DNA of 64,000 nt from Escherichia phage LF82-4, in sequence record PV660448; one strand, 5' to 3'. Positions 1 to 51,866 of this stretch are shown piece after piece. Under the pieces are notes generated by a model, which was not told the origin of the DNA, ran no database searches, and was given only the letters and a program-made list of their open reading frames with translations. Numbering within the stretch: position 1 is the stretch's first letter; the number at the start of each line of letters is the position of its first letter. A program made the position numbers and the translations under genes.

Positions 1-183
1 AGGAGCAGCAAAAATAGTTAAGCCTGATTGCAGCCCTGCATTCAGTGCACCACCTAGTGCGATATTCAACATCGGAATACGAGTAGGGACTTCATCACGA
101 TTATTAAACAGCTTAGACTTAGTCAAGTCTGCAGTCATTTTAGAAGTAGAAGCTTTAATCAGACGAGATTTTAAATCAGACAT
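1..183 (-). CDS. uvsX: UvsX recombinase, N-terminal fragment (gene continues beyond window start)
   Basis: ATG at 181-183 (minus); translation MSDLKSRLIKASTSKMTADLTKSKLFNN... matches T4 UvsX N-terminus as recalled; open to window edge. Confidence 0.85.
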   Translation of the reverse strand, partial: MSDLKSRLIKASTSKMTADLTKSKLFNNRDEVPTRIPMLNIALGGALNAGLQSGLTIFAAP

Positions 184-6871: not shown

Positions 6872-9583
6872 TCAAAAATCGAACATATCGAAGAGAGATG
6901 CTTTCTTCTCGTAATCGAGTTTCGCTGCTGATGTGAATCCTTCAAGTGGTTTAATAAATGTCTTCTCAAGGAGAACAGTGTAGTCCATCCAATGAAGTAC
7001 GTCGTCTTTAATTAAATCTGTGATTTCAGTACCAGAAGGCCATGCGATACATTTATCACCGAATGGGTTTCCTTCACGTAAAGGCAGAACATATACTTTT
7101 TCACCTTCTACAACTTGTGGAGCATCAATATTACCTTTGATAGCTCGGTTATATGTCAGAATTCCACGAATATGGAACGGACATTTAGGACCAGGGAATC
7201 CACCAACGTCATATTTAGCAATGTTATTCGCAGAAGATACCGACGCGATGCTAATATAATTCAATTGACGGAATTCTTTTTCAAACTCTTTAAAATATTC
7301 TTGTAATGATTCTTCACCTTCTTGAAGCATACGGCGAATACATTCTTTAAGAGCTTTCTGTACTGCTTTAGGGGTCGAAGATTTCTGTGTTTCGAGACCC
7401 ATGATTTTGAGTTTAGGCTCAGCGTATCTGGTTCCTTCCATATCCCACACGTTTAATGCATAACGTTTCTTACCAGTCCAGAATCCGCCAATACCTTTAG
7501 AACCGAGTGGAGGACCAGCGATAGCTTCTCGGTCCATGAACATTAAGTGTTGTTTATTGTTCATGTATTCACACATTTCACGGAAACCTCTATCAATAGC
7601 CGGTTCCATACGTTCACGAGCGAACTTATCTAAGAAGTCTACCCAATGGTTGGTATCACGGAATTTAGATTCACCAACCTTATCAATAATTTTATCTGCA
7701 GATACGTAAATAGAGTCTGTATCACCATAAAGAACGAAAGCTTCACCTTCTGTACCACAAACTTCGTTCAGATATTCATTAACTTTACGTTCAATCCACT
7801 GTAAAGCCATTTGCCCGAATGTTGTGATTGCAGTAGCATTACGCAAATCATAATAACGGAACCAAACGTTTCCAAGTGCACCATAAAGTGAGTTGATGAG
7901 CAATTTACGGTTAATCTGTGCAGTCATACCTGCAACTTCAGTACGTTGAGCTCTAAACAACATTTCATTAAGAGATTTAGCAGACAACTTTTTAATCTTT
8001 TCTTTAATCTCGTCAGTGAAGTCAAAACGATAATCAACATCTAATGGTTCATCAACAGAAAGATTAGGATTATGTAAGGCTTCTTTAATTATTTCACCAT
8101 TACGTTGAGCTGCAAGCATGTAACCTTTATGTTCTTTACGTTGATTAAAGACCTTAGTGATTTCAGTTGGAACTACACCATCACGGTCTTTATAATACAT
8201 CATGCCGTTAGGAGAGCAACTGTACACATCTGAAGGACGTTCAGCGATTGCGTTAATATAATCATGCAGTGGAGCTACTTTAAACGTTCCTGCTATTGTT
8301 TCCGGGCTAATATTCACTTGGCGAATAATACTTGGATACAGGGATGTAAGGTCGAAACTCATTACATATTTGTATCGATTTGGAATAGGTTCCTTAACAA
8401 AAGCACCGGGATAAGGTTGAACCGGGTGAGAACGACCTTGTGGAATCACCTTGCTCTGCTCTTTAAGGCTATTAAAAATAATAGCATCCCATGTTTTAAT
8501 TGGGCTAAACACAGATTGAATCTGTATCTTAGCATAATAACCCATGTCCAAACTCAAGTTGATGAACTGACGCTTAGCATCAATTTGCAATACACGATAC
8601 ACGTCGATAATGTTATAAGAAATATACCGTTGGTGATTGCTTTCACGAAGCTTAGAAATAGGGCCGTCATATTTCAGTTTACCAACGTTCAATTCAAATT
8701 CTGAAATGTAATCCAGAGAATACGACGGTTGATTGGTAAAAGAGAATTTTTTGTAAAGGTCGATATAATCAAGAACAGAGATACCGAACAATGTAATGAT
8801 TTCACGAGAACCATACATGTTTTCGATAACTTTAACACGAGTTTTACGATGTGGTGATAAACGTTTCGCAGTAGATTCGCCAAAAATATTCTTGATTCGG
8901 TTATACACATATGGAATATCAAATGACTCAACGTTCCATCCAGTCAAAATGACAGGAGTTTTCTGTTGCCAGAAGTTGAGATATTCCATCAACAATTCTT
9001 TTTCGTTATCGAACGGCATATAAATGATTTTATCGATAATTTCAGATGGAACTTCATCACCGCCTTGTTCTTGAAGCTTAGCCGCAATTTCGATAGACCA
9101 TTCTTCTACATTACCATACGGAGAATTCAATAGATCAAATACGTAGAACCTGTCGTCAATTGAGTCATAATGGGTGATAGCATCAATCGGATGTTTTGCT
9201 TGTGACGGCTCAGGGAACCCATCCGGAGATGTTACTTCGATGTCGAAGTTAGCCACACGAATTTTTGTATGGTCGTATTTGATTTCATAGTTATAAGTGT
9301 CAGACAAATACGCCAATTTGAAATCGTCCATGCCGAGTGCTTCAAGTCCGATATCTTCCATGCGTTTAATCCATTGGGAGGCATCACGCATATTAGCGAA
9401 CAACTTACGAGTACACGGCTTACCGTAGATATCGAAATATTTCGTAGCCTGACTTTCTGGGCAATGAGCAAACAATGATGGTTTATATTCTACTTCACGA
9501 GTACATTCACGGCCATTAGAATCGATGTAACGTTCAAAAATTGAATCACCAATCTGTTCAACCGTTAAGTAAAATTCTTTCAT
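6872..9583 (-). CDS. 43: DNA polymerase (family B)
   Basis: 903 aa; N-terminus MKEFYLTVEQIGDSIFERYIDSNG... and exo/pol motifs (FDIEV, YGDTDS) match RB69 gp43 as recalled. Confidence 0.97.
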   Translation of the reverse strand: MKEFYLTVEQIGDSIFERYIDSNGRECTREVEYKPSLFAHCPESQATKYFDIYGKPCTRKLFANMRDASQWIKRMEDIGLEALGMDDFKLAYLSDTYNYEIKYDHTKIRVANFDIEVTSPDGFPEPSQAKHPIDAITHYDSIDDRFYVFDLLNSPYGNVEEWSIEIAAKLQEQGGDEVPSEIIDKIIYMPFDNEKELLMEYLNFWQQKTPVILTGWNVESFDIPYVYNRIKNIFGESTAKRLSPHRKTRVKVIENMYGSREIITLFGISVLDYIDLYKKFSFTNQPSYSLDYISEFELNVGKLKYDGPISKLRESNHQRYISYNIIDVYRVLQIDAKRQFINLSLDMGYYAKIQIQSVFSPIKTWDAIIFNSLKEQSKVIPQGRSHPVQPYPGAFVKEPIPNRYKYVMSFDLTSLYPSIIRQVNISPETIAGTFKVAPLHDYINAIAERPSDVYSCSPNGMMYYKDRDGVVPTEITKVFNQRKEHKGYMLAAQRNGEIIKEALHNPNLSVDEPLDVDYRFDFTDEIKEKIKKLSAKSLNEMLFRAQRTEVAGMTAQINRKLLINSLYGALGNVWFRYYDLRNATAITTFGQMALQWIERKVNEYLNEVCGTEGEAFVLYGDTDSIYVSADKIIDKVGESKFRDTNHWVDFLDKFARERMEPAIDRGFREMCEYMNNKQHLMFMDREAIAGPPLGSKGIGGFWTGKKRYALNVWDMEGTRYAEPKLKIMGLETQKSSTPKAVQKALKECIRRMLQEGEESLQEYFKEFEKEFRQLNYISIASVSSANNIAKYDVGGFPGPKCPFHIRGILTYNRAIKGNIDAPQVVEGEKVYVLPLREGNPFGDKCIAWPSGTEITDLIKDDVLHWMDYTVLLEKTFIKPLEGFTSAAKLDYEKKASLFDMFDF

Positions 9584-13039: not shown

Positions 13040-14728
13040 TTATGAAACAGTCATTACAGTAAATCGTCCAACTTTACTCATCTGAAGATGTTGTCCATAA
13101 CGTTGAGGGTCATGGTCTCGATGAGAGATAATGAACACGTTAGTATTTTGTAAACTTCCAAGAATGGTATCTATAGCCTTAACAGCTTCAGAATCTACAG
13201 CGCCGTCAAAAACCTCATCAAGAATCAACGTGTTGATTTTAACACCAGAAACTTTTTCAGCAATATCTCGCCATGTAAACAACAATGCGATATCGATACG
13301 TGCCTTTTCACCTTGACTAAATGAAGCATAACTAAAATCTTCACGACCACGTGATTTTATAGATTCATTGAATTCTTCGTCAATAGAAAACACATAATCA
13401 GCTTCCATGATTTTAAGGTAATGGTTAATCTGCTTGTTGAACAGAGGCACATATTTTTTAATGATAGCACCTTTAATACCAGAATCTTTTAACATATCTG
13501 TTATAATACCACGATGGTATTTTTCAAGAACGTTATCCGATTTTGTTTTAATGATTTTATCAAGTTCTTTTTGAAGCAAAGCTATCTCATCGGCATGGTC
13601 GATAAATTCCGCCGAGGCTTGTTCTATTGCAGCTTTAACTTTCTTAGCTTTATCAATAGTGGCAATCATTGCTTGTTTCTTGGTACGAATATCAGATGCA
13701 AGGTCCTGTTTAGTCTTAACATTAGCTCTATATTCGTCCACTAGGACACTCAGATTATCTCTGTGACAGGTAAGTTGCTCGAATGAGTGATTACATTCAT
13801 GAAGCTTATCGGTAATCTTAGAGACAATAGGATCACCCTGGTGCAACTGTGATGCACAAGTAGGACATGTGCCACCGTCATGATACATCTTAATAACTTT
13901 GTTGTATGAGTCGATTTTAGATTTAATCAAGAATGCTTCTTGTCCTATCTTGTTGAATGCCTCAGTAGGGTCTTCATCAAGAACGATATTAAGTAGTCGC
14001 TCATTAGCTTCTTCGATTTCCGCTTTTAATGAACGAGCTTCTTTGGCTAGGTCGTCATACATATTCTGTAGACGCGCTACATTATCACCAGATAATTTCT
14101 TTTGACGTTCGATATTCTCGTTATAAATCTTAATTTGTTGGATAACACCATCTTTCTTAGCATCGAGAACTTGTCCCTGGGAATTAAGTTCTCGAACTTG
14201 AGACTTATTGATTTTATCCATTTCAGCGAGTGTGCCGACTTCTAAAAGGTCTTCGACAAGTTTTCTACGAGCAGGGGTGCTAAGAGCCATGAAAGGGGTA
14301 TACCCTGCCGTCCCAAGCACAACGATCTGTTTAAAAGACGCGTATGACATTCCGATGCTACGTTCAAATTCTTCTTGGAAGTCACGACTGCTGGCAGATT
14401 CATCGAGACGAACACCGTCAACGGAGATTTCGAAAATATTGGGCTTTTGGCCTCGTTTAATGAAGTATTTTTTATCATCGAATTCCATCCAAAGCTCAAC
14501 TAAGAGCTCTTTCTTGTTCGTGCTATTAATGATTTGTCCTTTCTTAACATCACGAAATGGTTTACCGAAAAGTCCGAAAGTAATGGCTTCTAACATCGTA
14601 GATTTACCACCGCCATTTTTACCAGTGATTAATGTCTTTTGGACTTTATCTAATTGGATATCAATAGGATTCCCACCTACCGACATGATGTTTTGATAAC
14701 GAACACGATTTAATTTAAATGATTTCAT
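13040..14728 (-). CDS. 46: recombination nuclease subunit (Rad50/SbcC-like)
   Basis: 562 aa; Walker A GKNGGGKST, zinc hook CPTC, signature/Walker B near C-terminus; T4 synteny. Confidence 0.95.
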   Translation of the reverse strand: MKSFKLNRVRYQNIMSVGGNPIDIQLDKVQKTLITGKNGGGKSTMLEAITFGLFGKPFRDVKKGQIINSTNKKELLVELWMEFDDKKYFIKRGQKPNIFEISVDGVRLDESASSRDFQEEFERSIGMSYASFKQIVVLGTAGYTPFMALSTPARRKLVEDLLEVGTLAEMDKINKSQVRELNSQGQVLDAKKDGVIQQIKIYNENIERQKKLSGDNVARLQNMYDDLAKEARSLKAEIEEANERLLNIVLDEDPTEAFNKIGQEAFLIKSKIDSYNKVIKMYHDGGTCPTCASQLHQGDPIVSKITDKLHECNHSFEQLTCHRDNLSVLVDEYRANVKTKQDLASDIRTKKQAMIATIDKAKKVKAAIEQASAEFIDHADEIALLQKELDKIIKTKSDNVLEKYHRGIITDMLKDSGIKGAIIKKYVPLFNKQINHYLKIMEADYVFSIDEEFNESIKSRGREDFSYASFSQGEKARIDIALLFTWRDIAEKVSGVKINTLILDEVFDGAVDSEAVKAIDTILGSLQNTNVFIISHRDHDPQRYGQHLQMSKVGRFTVMTVS

Positions 14729-14973
14729 ATGTATTCTCTTCGAATGAAGTCCTCTACATATTTTAACATGTCATCCCTATCAGCAAAATATTCATCTAGT
14801 TCTGCATACATAACAACACCTGGTGCGTACTCACAGGTAACATACATTGTTCCAAAGAAACGAGGAGTTGATTCCTCGTAATTCTCAGTCCATTCAACGA
14901 TACCAATATAACCGTCACCAATACTAAATTCGTGACGATGGATTTCATAGTCAGTCTTCGTCATTATACGCAT
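14725..14973 (-). CDS. hypothetical protein (46.1-like)
   Basis: 82 aa, overlaps gene 46 start by 4 nt. Confidence 0.55.
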   Translation of the reverse strand: MRIMTKTDYEIHRHEFSIGDGYIGIVEWTENYEESTPRFFGTMYVTCEYAPGVVMYAELDEYFADRDDMLKYVEDFIRREYI

Positions 14974-15208
14974 CCTCGATACATGCTTCAGCCATTTTAA
15001 GAATAGAGCCAGGAGTATCGTTGTCCATTATATTAAAGCTAAATTCAATAGCCCAGTCGGTACAGACATGAACGGCTTTAACTTCATTGCCTTCAACACG
15101 TAATGGCTCAATCCAATACTTGATAGTGTTCTCGAATCCATCATCATCTTTAACGTCTATTTCAACTTCAAGCCCGAGCCCAGCATTGTTAAATTCATCT
15201 AAAGTCAT
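14951..15208 (-). CDS. hypothetical protein (46.2-like)
   Basis: 85 aa between 47 and 46. Confidence 0.55.
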   Translation of the reverse strand: MTLDEFNNAGLGLEVEIDVKDDDGFENTIKYWIEPLRVEGNEVKAVHVCTDWAIEFSFNIMDNDTPGSILKMAEACIEDAYNDED

Positions 15209-16224
15209 TGTGTTGCCTCAATATAAAGTTCGTTAGAATATTTGACCAGCGCTTCTCTGTCTTCGTCTGAGATATCTGGAATCGCGTCAATATATTCTTT
15301 AATGATATCTTGAAGTGATTTAATCTCGATTTCCTGGTCGTCATCAGATTCAACACTGTTATCAACTTTAGAAACCATACGAAGAGAGTGAACTACTTTT
15401 TCAAGTTCAGATTCAAACTTAGTCAACTCTGAATCAATTTCTGATACTATAACACGTACGGCTAGATTAGTATAATCAGAATAATTAATTTTGCCTTTAA
15501 ACGGATAAGTGATTCGTCGATGCCATGTTGTTTCATTAGGAATAAATTCCATACGTTCAACATCAGTGTCAAATACCCAGAATCCACGTGGGTCGTTCTC
15601 GTCACCTGCAGTAAGGGTCCATGGTGTCCCAATATATTTGACGTTAGCAGCTTCAGAGATTGTGTGGAAGTGGCCAGACCAGACTTGTTTATAGGTCTTT
15701 AAGAAATCAGGTTCAAGCCCATGAGACTTCATTCCTTTATAGAAATAAAAGCCGTTCAGTTCCCAATGACCAACACAATACGCAGCAGAAGAAGTCTTGA
15801 TGTGCTCTAAGATTTCACCTGTATTTTCTTCACACATCCATGGAATTAAATCAATCAGACACCCATCGAAATCAACAGTCGTAGGTTTATCATAAATAAC
15901 AACATTTTTACGATGAGACAAAAGCTCTTGGGTTGTATTAGGGTATAAAGTTGTCTTATAAAAAAGGTCGTGGTTACCCAAAATAGTGTTAACGGTTATT
16001 CCAGCGTTTTCAGCCATATCAAATAATTCACGAGTAAACTCCATACAACGTTGTGTTGTGTGAGCTCGTACATCAAATACGTCCCCGTACTGTATCCATG
16101 TTGTTATTCCATTTTTAACAGAATAATCCACCATTTGTTTGAATCCATGACGTTGGATGTTTTGAATCCACTCATCATCCTTTTTTACACCTAAGTGCAA
16201 ATCGCCTACGTTAAGAATTTTCAT
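15205..16224 (-). CDS. 47: recombination nuclease subunit (Mre11/SbcD-like)
   Basis: 339 aa from ATG at 16224 (MKILNVGDLHLG...), AAGGTG RBS; phosphoesterase motifs GDLH, GNHD, GHWH. Confidence 0.93.
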   Translation of the reverse strand: MKILNVGDLHLGVKKDDEWIQNIQRHGFKQMVDYSVKNGITTWIQYGDVFDVRAHTTQRCMEFTRELFDMAENAGITVNTILGNHDLFYKTTLYPNTTQELLSHRKNVVIYDKPTTVDFDGCLIDLIPWMCEENTGEILEHIKTSSAAYCVGHWELNGFYFYKGMKSHGLEPDFLKTYKQVWSGHFHTISEAANVKYIGTPWTLTAGDENDPRGFWVFDTDVERMEFIPNETTWHRRITYPFKGKINYSDYTNLAVRVIVSEIDSELTKFESELEKVVHSLRMVSKVDNSVESDDDQEIEIKSLQDIIKEYIDAIPDISDEDREALVKYSNELYIEATQ

Positions 16225-17038
16225 ATTGCACCTTAAATTTACCATAAATTATACTGTGATAACTTAAATCAGGAAAACCTTCTGCGACGGCTAAAGGTCT
16301 AAACTTCTTAGGACTTATTCTACCACATTTTACCCAAAGAGCATATAGTGCTTCATAATATTCAAATAATGGTCCTTTACGAGCTTCAGAAACAGCTTTA
16401 CGCACTTTGTCCTTTATTGACGGGTCTAAATTTCTAAGGGTTTCACTAATTTTGTTTCGATGGGTTTCATTAATAAGATTTCCTTTAAGCCAGCCTTCGG
16501 GTTCAGTCCCTGGGACAAACATTTTCTTTTCTTTGCCATTATTATACCATTTGCGGCCTTTATTGTGACTAGAGGCTTTATATTCAGGAGAACGACCTTT
16601 TACATTACCTTCAGGTATATAAGGTAGAAAACTTTGTTCTAACGTTTCAGGGTTGTATGAGTGTATATGGCCTTTACCATTATGTGAGCCGTACAATGGG
16701 TGCTCTTCTTTTGGAAGTGATAATCCGAAAAATCCTTTAGGAGCAGCAATTGCTTTATTCATATACATCGGGTTATTGGCAGCATCCACCTTTAGTTGGA
16801 GTAAACGTTCAGCTTTTGTCGCTTCTTCTCTCGTGGCGTGTTCACTTACAATACATGAATCAAAAAGGTGTGGATTCATTTTTAGTTCAGAATTGTAAAT
16901 TTCCTTATATGCTTTTGATAAAACCGTTCCGTGATATCCAGCTTTATGCTTTGCAATACTTGTAGAACCTATATAAAACGGTGGAAGTTTGTCACCATCA
17001 TAAATCGTAAAATATACTATGTACATGTTATTCTCCAT
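16211..17038 (-). CDS. GIY-YIG homing endonuclease (Seg-like), free-standing
   Basis: 275 aa; GIY-YIG variant YIVYF...FYIGST, conserved R/E/N, NUMOD3-like HNKGRKWYNNG repeat; 3' end overlaps gene 47 start by 14 nt; locus where T4 has alpha-gt. Confidence 0.8.
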   Translation of the reverse strand: MENNMYIVYFTIYDGDKLPPFYIGSTSIAKHKAGYHGTVLSKAYKEIYNSELKMNPHLFDSCIVSEHATREEATKAERLLQLKVDAANNPMYMNKAIAAPKGFFGLSLPKEEHPLYGSHNGKGHIHSYNPETLEQSFLPYIPEGNVKGRSPEYKASSHNKGRKWYNNGKEKKMFVPGTEPEGWLKGNLINETHRNKISETLRNLDPSIKDKVRKAVSEARKGPLFEYYEALYALWVKCGRISPKKFRPLAVAEGFPDLSYHSIIYGKFKVQYENS

Positions 17039-17053
17039 TTTGTATAGAAATTA

Positions 17054-17082
17054 CTATATCATAGTTTATACTGTTTGTAAAC
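17054..17082 (-). promoter_or_regulatory. early-type promoter (GTTTAC -35, TATAGT-like -10) just upstream of the homing endonuclease gene
   Basis: minus strand GTTTAC...GATATAGT, ending 8-15 nt before ATG at 17038; no obvious RBS in the resulting leader. Confidence 0.35.
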
Positions 17083-17096
17083 CCTAGAAACGGAAA

Positions 17097-17116
17097 AGGA
17101 ACTCCGAAGAGTTCCT
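17097..17116 (-). terminator. hairpin with UUCG loop followed by U-rich tract
   Basis: minus strand AGGAACUC-UUCG-GAGUUCCU then UUUCC. Confidence 0.4.
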
Positions 17117-17288
17117 ATCCACATAGTACACCGTACAGAGGCTCATTTGAACTTTTAAATCGAATGGGCTTGTACGTAATAGTTCCTTCGGCTTTAGCTT
17201 TATCATAAGACTCTTTAAAACGTCTCATTCTTTCTGCTTTGCCTTTACGGATTTTATCGAAATTTTCAGAAGTCGGGATGTTCGTCAT
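17115..17288 (-). CDS. small hypothetical protein (57 aa), not in ORF track
   Basis: ATG at 17288 with GAGAGGTG RBS; MTNIPTSENFDKIRKGKAERMRRF...; fills 290-nt gap. Confidence 0.3.
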   Translation of the reverse strand: MTNIPTSENFDKIRKGKAERMRRFKESYDKAKAEGTITYKPIRFKSSNEPLYGVLCG

Positions 17289-17327
17289 GCATAAGCACCT
17301 CTCAGAAAATGCCTAAATCGATTTCTC

Positions 17328-17549
17328 TCATCGTTTCCACCATTTCTTAACTTGAAATGAATCGACCCACACGAGTTGTTTTGGGTCTGCCTTTACAATA
17401 GGCGGACAAATTTCTGTAATAGAACCGTCGTGATATTCCTTTTCGGAAATTTTAACACAAAGAGGACCTCCCAATTTAAGGGAGAACCCTGCGTTCAGCT
17501 TCAGACGTTTAAACTTTGTTTGAACTAGCGCCATTAATGATGTCCTCAA
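17328..17549 (-). CDS. hypothetical protein (73 aa)
   Basis: track ORF; start uncertain (overlaps upstream ORF by 41 nt). Confidence 0.45.
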   Translation of the reverse strand: MRTSLMALVQTKFKRLKLNAGFSLKLGGPLCVKISEKEYHDGSITEICPPIVKADPKQLVWVDSFQVKKWWKR

Positions 17550-22486: not shown

Positions 22487-24300
22487 TGGTGTTTAACCCT
22501 ATGCATGATTTCTTTATTTTTGCCGAGATTAAATCCACGTTCGTTCGGGTTCCCCAAATAACCGCACGTTCTTCTTATGGTGTTCATCTTTTTAGGATCA
22601 GTTTCTCCACAAACTGAACAAACAAATCCATTTTCAGTAGGAGTCATCTCATGGGTACTTCCACACGTAAAACATTTATCTACTGGCATGTTAACACCAA
22701 AATAATCTAAATGTTGTGCAGCATAATCCCACACGGCCTCAAGACCTTTTAAGTTATTTTTCATATCAGGAAGTTCAACATAAGAAATGTGACCACCTGT
22801 CGCAATGAAATGATATGGCGCTTCACGAGAAATCTTTTCAAACGGAGTAATATTTTCTTCTACTGAAACATGGAAACTATTAGTGTACCAGCCTTTATCA
22901 GTAACATCCTTTACACTTCCATATTTTTCTGTATCAAGTTTACAGAAGCGATAACAAAGGTTTTCAGCAGGAGTAGAATACAAGCTAAAAGCAAATCCGG
23001 TTCTTTCAGTCCACTGTTTAAGACGAGCATTCATTTTAGTTAAAATTTCTTGCCCAATATCACGACCGACAAGAATATTCAATTCGTGAATACCAATGTA
23101 TCCTAAAGACACTGAACTTCTACCGTTTTTAAATAACTCAATTATGTCGTCATCAGGTTTAAGACGAACCCCGAATGCACCTTCTTGGTAAAGAATAGGA
23201 GCAACAGTCGCTTTAACACCCTTTAAAGAACTAATTCTACACATCAAGGCTTCAAAACACAGATCCATTCGTTCATTAAATAATTCGATAAATTTCTGTT
23301 CATTGAACTGTGTTCCAATATAAGAATCTAATGCGATACGAGGAAGATTCAGTGTTACAACACCAAGATTATTACGTCCATCAAGAATTTCATTACCAGT
23401 CGAATCTTTCCATACGCTCAAGAAACTACGGCAGCCCATTGGAGAAACTGGAACTGAAGAACCGGTAATAGCTTTATTATTCTTAACAGAAATAATGTCA
23501 GGATACATTCTTTTGCTTGCACATTCTAACGCAAGTTGTTTAATATCATAGTTCGGATCATCTTTATAAAGATTAACACCTTCTTCAACAAACATAACAA
23601 GTTTAGGAAAAATAGGAGTTATTCCATCACGACCAAGACCTTTAATCCGATTTTTCAGAATTGCCTTCTGAATCATTCGTTCAGTCCAATCGGTTCCCGT
23701 ACCAAATGTAATTGTTACAAAAGGCGTTTGTCCGTTTGAACTAAAGAGAGTATTTACTTCATATTCATAAGCTTGGAACGCATCGTATACGTCTTTTTCT
23801 GTTTTAGATTGGGCATAATTCAACGCATCAGCGATTTGCCATTTTTCTGCATCCTCAATATGTTTTGCATAGGTGCGTTTAACATAAGGAGAAAGAACTT
23901 TATCGACATTCGCAAATGTAGTTCCGCCATACTGATGTGAAGCAACTTGTGCAGTAATTTGTGCCATAATTGCAGTAGCAACACCAATCGATTTAGGCGT
24001 TTCAATTTGAGCATTGCCTAATTTAAATCCATTCTCAAGCATCCCCTTTAAATCGACTAAACAGCAATTAGTAAATGGAAGAGCAGGAGAATAATCAATA
24101 TCATGCATATGAATGATTCCGCTTTCATGCGCATTCATAATAAAAGACGGGACCATATTTTTGGCAATGTGCTTAGACACAATACCAGCCATAAGGTCCC
24201 GTTGAGTTGGAAAAACACGAGAATCTTTATTAGCATTCTCGTTCAAAAGATCTTTATTAGTTTTATAAATTAATCCTTCAATTTCTTTTTCAATTTTCAT
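22483..24300 (-). CDS. nrdD: anaerobic ribonucleoside-triphosphate reductase (glycyl radical enzyme), uninterrupted
   Basis: 605 aa; C-terminal glycyl-radical motif RRTCGYLG and Zn-ribbon CFTCGS...CSVCG; single continuous ORF (no intron). Confidence 0.95.
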   Translation of the reverse strand: MKIEKEIEGLIYKTNKDLLNENANKDSRVFPTQRDLMAGIVSKHIAKNMVPSFIMNAHESGIIHMHDIDYSPALPFTNCCLVDLKGMLENGFKLGNAQIETPKSIGVATAIMAQITAQVASHQYGGTTFANVDKVLSPYVKRTYAKHIEDAEKWQIADALNYAQSKTEKDVYDAFQAYEYEVNTLFSSNGQTPFVTITFGTGTDWTERMIQKAILKNRIKGLGRDGITPIFPKLVMFVEEGVNLYKDDPNYDIKQLALECASKRMYPDIISVKNNKAITGSSVPVSPMGCRSFLSVWKDSTGNEILDGRNNLGVVTLNLPRIALDSYIGTQFNEQKFIELFNERMDLCFEALMCRISSLKGVKATVAPILYQEGAFGVRLKPDDDIIELFKNGRSSVSLGYIGIHELNILVGRDIGQEILTKMNARLKQWTERTGFAFSLYSTPAENLCYRFCKLDTEKYGSVKDVTDKGWYTNSFHVSVEENITPFEKISREAPYHFIATGGHISYVELPDMKNNLKGLEAVWDYAAQHLDYFGVNMPVDKCFTCGSTHEMTPTENGFVCSVCGETDPKKMNTIRRTCGYLGNPNERGFNLGKNKEIMHRVKHQ

Positions 24301-38884: not shown

Positions 38885-39343
38885 CTAGATTTTAATCACT
38901 GCTTTAGAAGCTTTTCCTGGTAGTCGTTTACTGTTAATAATAGCCATTCTGCATTGAAGAGTCTTCATTTTGAATGCTGGATTTTCGCGACAAACTGTAA
39001 GTCCTAACCAAAGATTTCCATCAGTTATTTCTAAACGGCCTGGGCGATATTCGACACCTTCGACAAAATCTTCATCAACATCTGGACGTGCCGGCATTGA
39101 TAAAAATTCTGCAACTTCTTTAGCATGATTTTTTACTTTATGAAATAATTCAAAAACGTAATTCTCATCTATTTCTCTCTGGATGGCACGATCTAAGAGA
39201 TGTTGAGAATACTTGATATGAAAGCCTGGTAGTCCAAGAGACTTTGCAGCATCTTTTATACCGGCATTTATTTTGCGGAACTCCGTTTCAAAGATTCGAC
39301 GGAGTTTATTACGGCGGATAAAAACTTCCGAATTGATAGTCAT
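38885..39343 (-). CDS. regB: endoribonuclease RegB
   Basis: 152 aa from ATG 39343 (MTINSEVFIRRNKLRR...); matches T4 RegB as recalled; track start is TTG. Confidence 0.85.
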   Translation of the reverse strand: MTINSEVFIRRNKLRRIFETEFRKINAGIKDAAKSLGLPGFHIKYSQHLLDRAIQREIDENYVFELFHKVKNHAKEVAEFLSMPARPDVDEDFVEGVEYRPGRLEITDGNLWLGLTVCRENPAFKMKTLQCRMAIINSKRLPGKASKAVIKI

Positions 39344-51084: not shown

Positions 51085-51753
51085 TCACTTAAATTTTAGT
51101 TTATAGCCTTTAATCCAACCTTCCGGAATAGGATCGGTTTTCTTAATTTTCTTAGATTTCTTTTCTTCTAATGAATGAATCCACATAGTACCAAACTGGG
51201 AATTTTTCTCGCCTTGTTGGTGTTTGTTCCTGGCGTGGGTATCTTTCATTTTAGCAATAGTTTCGGAAGTATGATTTTTATTTAAAAACGACTTAGTGCT
51301 AGAGAATTTTTCTCTGTATTCAGGTAAAGTCCACAGATGCTTTAATTTCTCTGAACCCATTTTACGATATTTTTCTTGAAGCACTTCATCAGAATCAAAT
51401 CTCTCTTTAAAAGCTTTGGCTCCTTTAATAGAGGCTTCTTTCTTTTTATAATTAAATTCGTAAGTATTTAAATGGTCCCAACCACCTTCGCCACCAAGTT
51501 TTAAATTATATACGTCAGAACGATTCAAAAATTCTTCGTTTACGATATTTTTCTCGGCTTCAAACATCTGCTCTTTAGTGTCAAAGAATTCTAAAATTTC
51601 TTTATTAAAATTTTCTATACCATACTTGTCTTGGGCTCTTTTTAATAATTTACCAGAACCCATATATCCATCATCTAAATTTTCGGTAGAATGAGCGCCT
51701 ATATAGATTTTATTATTAATTTTATTTGTTATTTTATAAGTGTAATGGAACAT
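51085..51753 (-). CDS. GIY-YIG homing endonuclease (SegB-like) in tRNA region
   Basis: 222 aa; GIY-YIG YTYKITNKINNKIYIGAH, NUMOD3-like repeats KNHTSETIAKMK and GEKNSQFGTMW. Confidence 0.8.
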   Translation of the reverse strand: MFHYTYKITNKINNKIYIGAHSTENLDDGYMGSGKLLKRAQDKYGIENFNKEILEFFDTKEQMFEAEKNIVNEEFLNRSDVYNLKLGGEGGWDHLNTYEFNYKKKEASIKGAKAFKERFDSDEVLQEKYRKMGSEKLKHLWTLPEYREKFSSTKSFLNKNHTSETIAKMKDTHARNKHQQGEKNSQFGTMWIHSLEEKKSKKIKKTDPIPEGWIKGYKLKFK

Positions 51754-51794: not shown

Positions 51795-51866
51795 TGGCCC
51801 TGGCTGGTTTCGATCCAGCTACCTATCAGTTATGAGCTGACAGCTCTCCCATTGAGCTACAGGGCC
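51795..51866 (-). tRNA. tRNA with anticodon CAU (Met or Ile2-type)
   Basis: 72 nt cloverleaf folded by hand: acceptor GGCCCUG/CAGGGCC, D-arm GCUC/GAGC, anticodon stem GUCAG/CUGAU with loop CUCAUAA, T-arm GCUGG/CCAGC; no encoded CCA. Confidence 0.8.

Follow-up and report, generated by a model that had tools for sequence, protein, structure and literature searches.

A probable free-standing GIY-YIG homing endonuclease upstream of gene 47 in Escherichia phage LF82-4

The Seg endonucleases of bacteriophage T4 cut DNA hundreds of base pairs (bp) or more from their own gene, in a neighbouring gene, and cause co-conversion and marker exclusion (PMC2988022). In particular, SegG, the product of gene 32.1, cuts at a distance inside the neighbouring gene 32 and causes co-conversion (PMC2988022). 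Here, a gene of this kind is described in Escherichia phage LF82-4 (sequence record PV660448), in a stretch of 64,000 nucleotides (nt) that was analysed as a whole and is called the window; all positions refer to it. The gene lies directly upstream of gene 47, and its product is probably a modular GIY-YIG homing endonuclease, free-standing and of the T4 Seg type, which would represent an uncharacterised subfamily that homes into gene 47. The locus consists of the following elements:

16211..17038, minus strand: maximal open reading frame (ORF) of the endonuclease gene, 275 codons
16211..17026, minus strand: coding sequence of the putative homing endonuclease, 271 amino acids (aa) from the second ATG, the likely start
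15205..16224, minus strand: gene 47, encoding an Mre11/SbcD-like recombination nuclease subunit (Metallophos match), chimeric in LF82-4
16228..17093: 866-bp segment without counterpart in phage LF82-1, the closest relative, replacing 45 bp
15846..16227, minus strand: foreign tract at the 5' end of gene 47 (nt 1-379), 140 mismatches to LF82-1 in 382 nt (~37%)
14932..15845, minus strand: second-tier tract, the rest of gene 47 and 46.2, 18 mismatches to LF82-1 (about 2%)
13500..14931: tract with 0 mismatches to LF82-1

In its general layout, the gene resembles segF and segA to segE: it is free-standing, polymorphic among relatives and overlaps its neighbour by a few nt, and its product joins a GIY-YIG N-terminus to modular DNA-binding domains. 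SegF reportedly cleaves gene 56 and is said to be the case that gave rise to the name "intronless homing". The LF82-4 endonuclease is not orthologous to any T4 Seg protein, and its modules form a mosaic. Its catalytic domain is best matched in T4 by SegG, over aa 8-115, with PP.YIGS and AER..QL.V.A.NP.Y.N in common; segG, too, lies directly upstream of an essential replication or recombination gene, with expression signals in or near the endonuclease gene. However, the similarity between the two proteins is very low (16 bits), their DNA-binding modules differ, and the target of SegG is gene 32, whereas the LF82-4 endonuclease is linked to gene 47, a site at which T4 has no seg gene. The GY.GS motif that follows YIG reads GYHGT in the LF82-4 protein and DGYMGSG in SegA-E. 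Farther along the chain, the middle W.NNG...P.GW.KG repeats recall SegE, and over its last ~80 residues the protein is similar to the C-terminal ends of SegA and of MobD, an HNH enzyme, the similarity to MobD being confined to aa 165-274. I-TevI, the endonuclease of the td intron and the structural prototype of GIY-YIG homing enzymes, shares with the LF82-4 protein the conserved Tyr, Tyr, Glu and Asn residues and the plan of catalytic domain, linker and C-terminal helix-turn-helix. In contrast to I-TevI, the LF82-4 enzyme is not encoded in an intron and lacks a zinc finger, the segment around R27 does not align, and identity amounts to 12-17%. T4 MobB, an HNH enzyme, is likewise a free-standing homing endonuclease in the hypervariable interval from gene 47 to a-gt.2, but its catalytic domain is unrelated (phmmer score -0.5 against the LF82-4 protein) and its gene sits at a-gt/a-gt.2 rather than at the start of gene 47.

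The window derives from an RB69-like Mosigvirus, whose best matches (up to 99%) are LF82-1, p000v, the O157 typing phages, ATK47 and others. RB69, the type phage of Mosigvirus, has reportedly no homing endonuclease genes. A 4-kb region that includes the LF82-4 endonuclease gene is matched by 706 phage records, none of which covers more than 78% of the query because all of them lack about 820 bp; the gene is absent from every one of the 145 records that match the region at 95% or more. Among 50,697 phage records, the best match to the endonuclease DNA reaches only 67%, and the best protein match (62%) is to five Mosigviruses, the AV109 group, which carry the gene at the same position. The only identical copy was found in a Logan contig, which equals the window at 100% over 7.3 kb and thus represents the same phage. 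A scan of IMG/VR for close relatives returned distant partial matches only, and the lineage that donated the cassette and the 5' gene 47 tract is unsampled. An earlier note, made from the DNA sequence alone, had described a free-standing Seg-like GIY-YIG gene whose target probably lies at the corresponding site in relatives that lack it. The first of these suggestions is supported. As the gene is absent from the closest relatives and has a mosaic flank of the kind that homing would leave, the second is the most plausible reading.

The divergence of this flank is stepped. The 45 bp of LF82-1 that were replaced (L001, 2729-2773) hold a canonical MotA-box middle promoter (TTTGCTTTA-N12-TAGAAT) and the Shine-Dalgarno sequence of gene 47. 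To the right of the insertion, LF82-4 differs from LF82-1 by 1 mismatch in 3,407 nt (99.97%). To the left, the first 119 codons of gene 47 (nt 1-357) specify a protein segment with only 58% aa identity to LF82-1, and the divergent 5' tract ends in a conserved block, ..DFDGCLIDL.., after which come the second-tier and the identical tracts listed above. AV109, a Mosigvirus with the homing endonuclease gene (HEG), displays the same mosaic pattern with the same endpoint, and the 5' tracts of the two phages are 76% identical. When gene 47 was compared among eight genomes, the 5' 360 nt of LF82-4 grouped with AV109 and with the unclassified metagenomic contig L008, both carriers of the long-form gene, while the 3' 600 nt grouped strictly by genus; the L008 endonuclease is also the closest non-identical homologue (69% identity). 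The stepped divergence looks like the in silico signature of a conversion tract that was imported with the endonuclease gene and is nested in a younger tract from a Mosigvirus donor, and it agrees with published descriptions of the T4 Seg enzymes (PMC2988022). Gene 47 nt 1-379 would then be a putative co-conversion tract and the probable site of an immune target-site allele. A comparison of carriers with non-carriers does not map the recognition site in Mosigvirus, where the tract is too divergent. Between teqhad, a Tequatrovirus carrier, and T4, the first 120 nt show only four silent changes (gene 47 nt 9, 10, 15 and 18), which are ambiguous because they fall inside the overlap with the endonuclease ORF.

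Direct annotation of the endonuclease protein failed. At E<=1, Pfam gave no match, including PF01541 and NUMOD; NCBIfam gave nothing relevant, only a spurious RelB match; and sequence searches of the PDB, both phmmer and profile, gave nothing relevant. PHROGs assigned the protein to phrog_10820, labelled "HNH endonuclease" (E 4e-75), and weakly to phrog_314, labelled "homing endonuclease". The protein was therefore approached by remote homology, i.e., through homologues, HHalign and structure prediction. A large protein collection returned 47 homologues, 46 of which were used for scans and residue counts (residue numbers follow the 275-aa ORF). When these 46 were scanned singly, 26 gave weak, sub-threshold matches to PF01541 (best E 4.7e-4), 15 matched NUMOD3, mostly variants with a different middle module (e.g., P0028), and none matched an HNH family. 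HHalign of the endonuclease family against an alignment of T4 SegA-G, I-TevI and I-TevII gave a probability of 97.4% (E 1.2e-11) over residues 7-108 and paired Y13, Y22, E77 and N94 with I-TevI Y6, Y17, E75 and N90. The alignment to SegA-G, which the earlier note had named as a check, thus places these GIY-YIG residues in register and leaves R27 of I-TevI without an aligned counterpart, its segment being part of an insertion that T4 SegA-G lack as well. At position 30 (K30), in helix 1, K or R is found in 45 of the 46 homologues, and R70 is found in 44.

The ~100 N-terminal residues form the conserved core of the homologue alignment, in which T11, Y13, G15, P19, Y22, I23, G24, S25, Y35, G37, E51, F59, E77, N94 and G102 are invariant. 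Accordingly, T11-I12-Y13 and Y22-I23-G24-S25 are fixed except for I12 (at least 90%), and E77 and N94 occur in 46 of 46 sequences. An AlphaFold2 model built on the homologue alignment has a mean pLDDT of 87, with 93-97 over aa 11-90; in a Foldseek search of the PDB, its three best matches were the I-TevI catalytic domain. The C-terminal helices match homeodomain or Myb-type helix-turn-helix DNA-binding domains. The protein can thus be divided as follows:

about aa 5-105, N-terminal: GIY-YIG domain
about aa 105-190: beta-hairpin repeat module, with IHSYNP..PEGNVKGR and KWYNNG..PEGWLKG
between the repeats and the C-terminal domain: one NUMOD3-like helix (ETHRNKISETLRN), recognised by eye only
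about aa 205-275, C-terminal: helix-turn-helix, shared with MobD and SegA

Of four comparisons with homologues, three had a computable dS; dN/dS in these was 0.11-0.22, and the ORF is under purifying selection, as judged from these sequences. Taken together, fold and alignment point to a divergent but genuine GIY-YIG enzyme, presumably an active nuclease. Of the label "Seg-like GIY-YIG/NUMOD" given in the earlier note, the GIY-YIG part is thus borne out, by remote-homology methods only, and the NUMOD part is not, as no match was obtained at E<=1.

The position of the gene is fixed across genera. Homologues occupy the same junction, with an overlap of 1-23 nt with the start of gene 47, in Mosigvirus, Tequatrovirus, Dhakavirus, Marfavirus and two unclassified T4-like metagenome contigs. 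Outside Mosigvirus, these are:

teqhad (Tequatrovirus): homologue exactly at the 47.1/47 junction, with a-gt intact and 47.1 sequence retained immediately upstream
QL01 (Dhakavirus): homologue at the gene 47 junction
Klebsiella phage EI (Marfavirus): homologue at the gene 47 junction
L008 (metagenome contig): homologue at the gene 47 junction
L013 (metagenome contig): homologue at the gene 47 junction, the endonuclease only 40% identical

The conserved C-terminal motif ..ENS is an alternate reading frame of gene 47's ATGAAAATTCT, which argues for long residence at this site. The lineage was seen in at least 197 phage records, in which it is labelled variously as "hypothetical", "HNH" or "SegE"; in the literature, no described gene-47-linked homing endonuclease was found. 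Related genes also occur elsewhere. In IME281 (L015/L016, 2501-3178), the same catalytic and C-terminal domains are combined with a NUMOD3 middle module (P0028), and the gene lies immediately upstream of topoisomerase gene 39, with an overlap of 8 nt; a relative that consists of the N-terminal domain only was found in a head-gene region. Since the swap of the middle module accompanies the change of site, the site seems to follow the DNA-binding module.

The ORF coordinates and the 14-nt overlap with gene 47 given in the earlier note are correct: the endonuclease TAA is at 16213-16211, and gene 47 starts at ATG 16224, from which MKILNVGDLHLG is read (MKILNVGD...), giving the same N-terminus as in T4 gp47. 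The start of the endonuclease was, by contrast, misjudged. The minus-strand leader reads ...TATACAAAATGGAGAATAACATGTAC..., and the first ATG (17038) has no Shine-Dalgarno sequence; the leader seemed to have "no obvious RBS" (ribosome-binding site), with tightly limited expression, because the longest ORF, and hence the wrong start codon, had been taken. The second Met is the start position in every aligned homologue, it is preceded by GGAG, and the gene-caller product P0001 in a public protein collection is identical and 271 aa long. The second ATG (17026) is therefore the likely start. The signals at the locus are:

17033..17036, minus strand: Shine-Dalgarno sequence GGAG, 6 nt upstream of ATG 17026, within codons 1-2 of the maximal ORF
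17053..17081, minus strand: predicted sigma-70 or T4-early-type promoter, (G)TTTACA-17 nt-TGaTATAGT, with an extended -10 element, within the inserted segment
17097..17116, minus strand: intrinsic terminator, with the hairpin AGGAACTC-TTCG-GAGTTCCT and a T run after it, closing the a-gt.2 homologue
16229..16234, minus strand: gene 47 Shine-Dalgarno sequence AAGGTG, inside the last endonuclease codons (..K V Q Y E N S stop)

The predicted promoter matches 10 of 12 consensus positions plus TG. It is the sole candidate left for the cassette strand, as no MotA-box, late (TATAAATA) or strict early-promoter motif was found on the endonuclease strand at 16100-17330. The terminator hairpin is also present in relatives without the HEG, and the insertion has its right-hand junction there. 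In AV109, the cassette is laid out in the same way, with the terminator, an extended -10 promoter (GTTTACG-17-TGtTATAAT) at the equivalent place and AAGGAG at the position of GGAG. Such signals depart from the T4 paradigm, in which promoters specific to endonuclease genes belong to the middle or late class and in no case to the early one (PMC2988022), whereas those of the LF82-4 and AV109 cassettes are predicted to be of the early, extended -10 type. The segG gene has been counted among seven "promoter-less cassettes", yet also among those genes for which an endonuclease-specific promoter, middle or late, lies within the 3' end of the gene upstream (PMC2988022); the LF82-4 cassette, by comparison, is predicted to have an early-type promoter of its own. 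A hairpin sequestering the RBS, as in I-TevI or mobE, was also considered; the leader fold (-7.9 kcal/mol, z = -0.54) does not go beyond shuffled sequences and was rejected as evidence of translational control. GGAG is the target motif of the RegB endoribonuclease, and GGAG 17036-17033 is a candidate cleavage site. A homologue of this enzyme is encoded in the window:

38891..39343, minus strand: RegB endoribonuclease homologue, 77% identical to T4

As a matter of speculation, RegB cutting at GGAG could restrict expression of the endonuclease. In AV109 (L002, 3892-4192), the phage that carries the cassette has lost the homologues of a-gt.2 and a-gt.3 (window 17115-17549), and ~300 bp of unrelated sequence stand in their place.

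It is proposed that, when a Mosigvirus without the gene takes part in a mixed infection, the endonuclease would bind DNA through its beta-hairpin and helix-turn-helix modules and cut both strands of the recipient's gene 47, within or close to the 5' ~380 nt. The recombination machinery of the phage would repair the break from the endonuclease-carrying genome and, in doing so, copy the cassette along with the neighbouring 5' part of gene 47. The divergent gene 47 sequence of the donor would make its own genome immune to cleavage. The cassette brings along its own predicted sigma-70-type promoter and GGAG RBS; its insertion removed the MotA-dependent middle promoter and the Shine-Dalgarno sequence of gene 47, the latter being replaced by a new one in the last codons of the endonuclease gene.

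Several observations weigh against this reading. The protein fails the Pfam GIY-YIG model even at E<=1, and the canonical catalytic Arg (R27 in I-TevI) has no aligned partner, though T4 Seg proteins likewise lack it in the alignment. The promoter of the cassette is predicted from a consensus match only, and the total of promoter-like sites across the region is not above that of shuffled sequences. Moreover, gene 47 generally varies more between genera in its 5' part, and exchange of the gp47 N-terminal domain could happen without the help of an endonuclease. A long divergent tract is not universal, either, since the gene 47 flanks of teqhad and T4 are 95% identical, and a literature search found no biochemical or genetic test of any member of the lineage. 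The unaligned Arg would also suit a domesticated or decaying endonuclease that no longer cuts or homes and is kept for the promoter and Shine-Dalgarno sequence it provides to the essential genes 47 and 46, or as a DNA-binding protein. The insertion did remove the MotA-box promoter and Shine-Dalgarno sequence of gene 47, a new Shine-Dalgarno sequence lies in the endonuclease ORF, and T4 seg and mob genes are known to be retained through host-gene signals embedded in them (PMC2988022). Nevertheless, such a fate is unlikely: the ORF is intact, the other catalytic residues are invariant, dN/dS is ~0.1-0.2, active T4 Seg enzymes likewise have no aligned Arg, and the rarity of the gene among close relatives fits recent gain better than long retention. 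Active cleavage might instead serve competition, the enzyme cutting gene 47 of co-infecting relatives so as to exclude their markers or cripple recombination-dependent replication, with its own spread as a side effect. The target gene encodes an Mre11-like nuclease needed for such replication, and T2 markers are excluded through the action of T4 Seg enzymes (PMC2988022). Sequence alone cannot separate a weapon from homing; however, gp46/47 would be supplied in trans during co-infection and the mosaic displays gene conversion, not destruction only, so a primary role as a weapon seems quite improbable.

Two further explanations concern the label and the location of the gene. The database label HNH rests on the phrog_10820 assignment and on RefSeq labels in QL01, teqhad and others, and the C-terminal domain does resemble that of MobD. 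An HNH identity can nonetheless be given practically no credence and was ruled out, because none of the 46 homologues matches an HNH family, the catalytic domain folds and aligns as GIY-YIG, and the likeness to MobD is restricted to the shared C-terminal DNA-binding domain. The earlier note had also raised a role of the endonuclease in exchanging the locus where T4 carries the alpha-glucosyltransferase gene, a-gt, which would explain why a-gt is missing here. The facts on which this idea was built hold: the gene does lie between 47 and 55, with homologues of a-gt.2, a-gt.3, a-gt.4 and a-gt.5 between it and 55; the matching T4 interval has 47.1, a-gt and mobB between 47 and a-gt.2; and tblastn across the window found no a-gt, b-gt, 47.1 or mobB. 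The idea itself is very hard to sustain. Exchange with the endonuclease gene affected the 5' third of gene 47 and not a-gt; a-gt is also missing from HEG-less Mosigviruses, in which the 45-bp promoter-bearing spacer is all that lies at this place; and teqhad has a homologous endonuclease gene side by side with an intact a-gt, which ties the gene to gene 47 and not to a-gt. RB69 and JS98 are known to lack glucosyltransferases (PMC2993671), and the window has instead a cluster of the RB69 type for sugar-modified hydroxymethylcytosine (hmC) near gene 43 (PMC6024577):

282..6831, minus strand: seven-gene cluster between uvsX (1..183) and gene 43 (6872..9583)

In T4, this place is taken by segA, b-gt, 42 and imm. 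The cluster encodes, among others, a protein of the thymidylate-synthase fold with only 25% identity to T4 gp42, a nucleotidyltransferase of 561 aa, a protein with a SIS domain and a 299-aa protein without a Pfam match, and it fits the RB69-type arabinosyl-hmC pathway (PMC6024577).

The proposed homing into gene 47 can be extended to a broader, rather doubtful picture. The Seg-like subfamily linked to gene 47 might be a long-term resident whose homing repeatedly shuffles the N-terminal third of gp47 between genera, and whose cassette took over the initiation of transcription and translation of the essential 47-46 operon in Mosigviruses. The gp47 protein is itself part of the machinery thought to resect homing-induced breaks. 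If this picture were true, the phage would pay a price for losing the cassette, and gp46/47 would be expressed with altered timing. Dhakavirus QL01 has kept the MotA-box middle promoter, upstream of its endonuclease gene; in the LF82-4 window and in AV109, it is replaced by the predicted sigma-70 extended -10 promoter. To judge from these predicted signals, the class of 47-46 regulation may differ between phages that are otherwise 98-100% identical.

This selfish gene is real but ordinary; it fits a well-known kind, will not surprise specialists and leaves the known picture of how such elements work unchanged. It extends the known set of T4 homing endonucleases by a Seg-like lineage that is uncharacterised but widely distributed and whose apparent target is an essential recombination gene, and the locus offers what appears to be a clean case, found in nature, of intronless homing in Mosigvirus, with co-conversion tracts that are nested. 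For databases, it follows that the "HNH" labels of this family are wrong and that the Pfam GIY-YIG model misses the LF82-4 member. When Mosigviruses with and without the cassette are combined in phage therapy, preferential exchange of the gene 47 region would be expected in the mixed preparations.

A second free-standing GIY-YIG gene lies at 51085-51753 on the minus strand. Its product (222 aa) is 75% identical to T4 SegB and, unlike the gene-47-linked protein, passes the Pfam GIY-YIG model (E 1.3e-6). The gene adjoins a tRNA-Met gene (51795-51866), in a tRNA region as in T4. LF82-4 thus appears to carry at least two homing endonuclease genes. Finally, a part of nrdD (23764-24300, minus strand) shows 97.8% protein identity to T4, far above neighbouring genes with 61% for gp43, 91% for gp55 and 77% for RegB; this similarity could reflect strong constraint or recent exchange near the I-TevII homing region.

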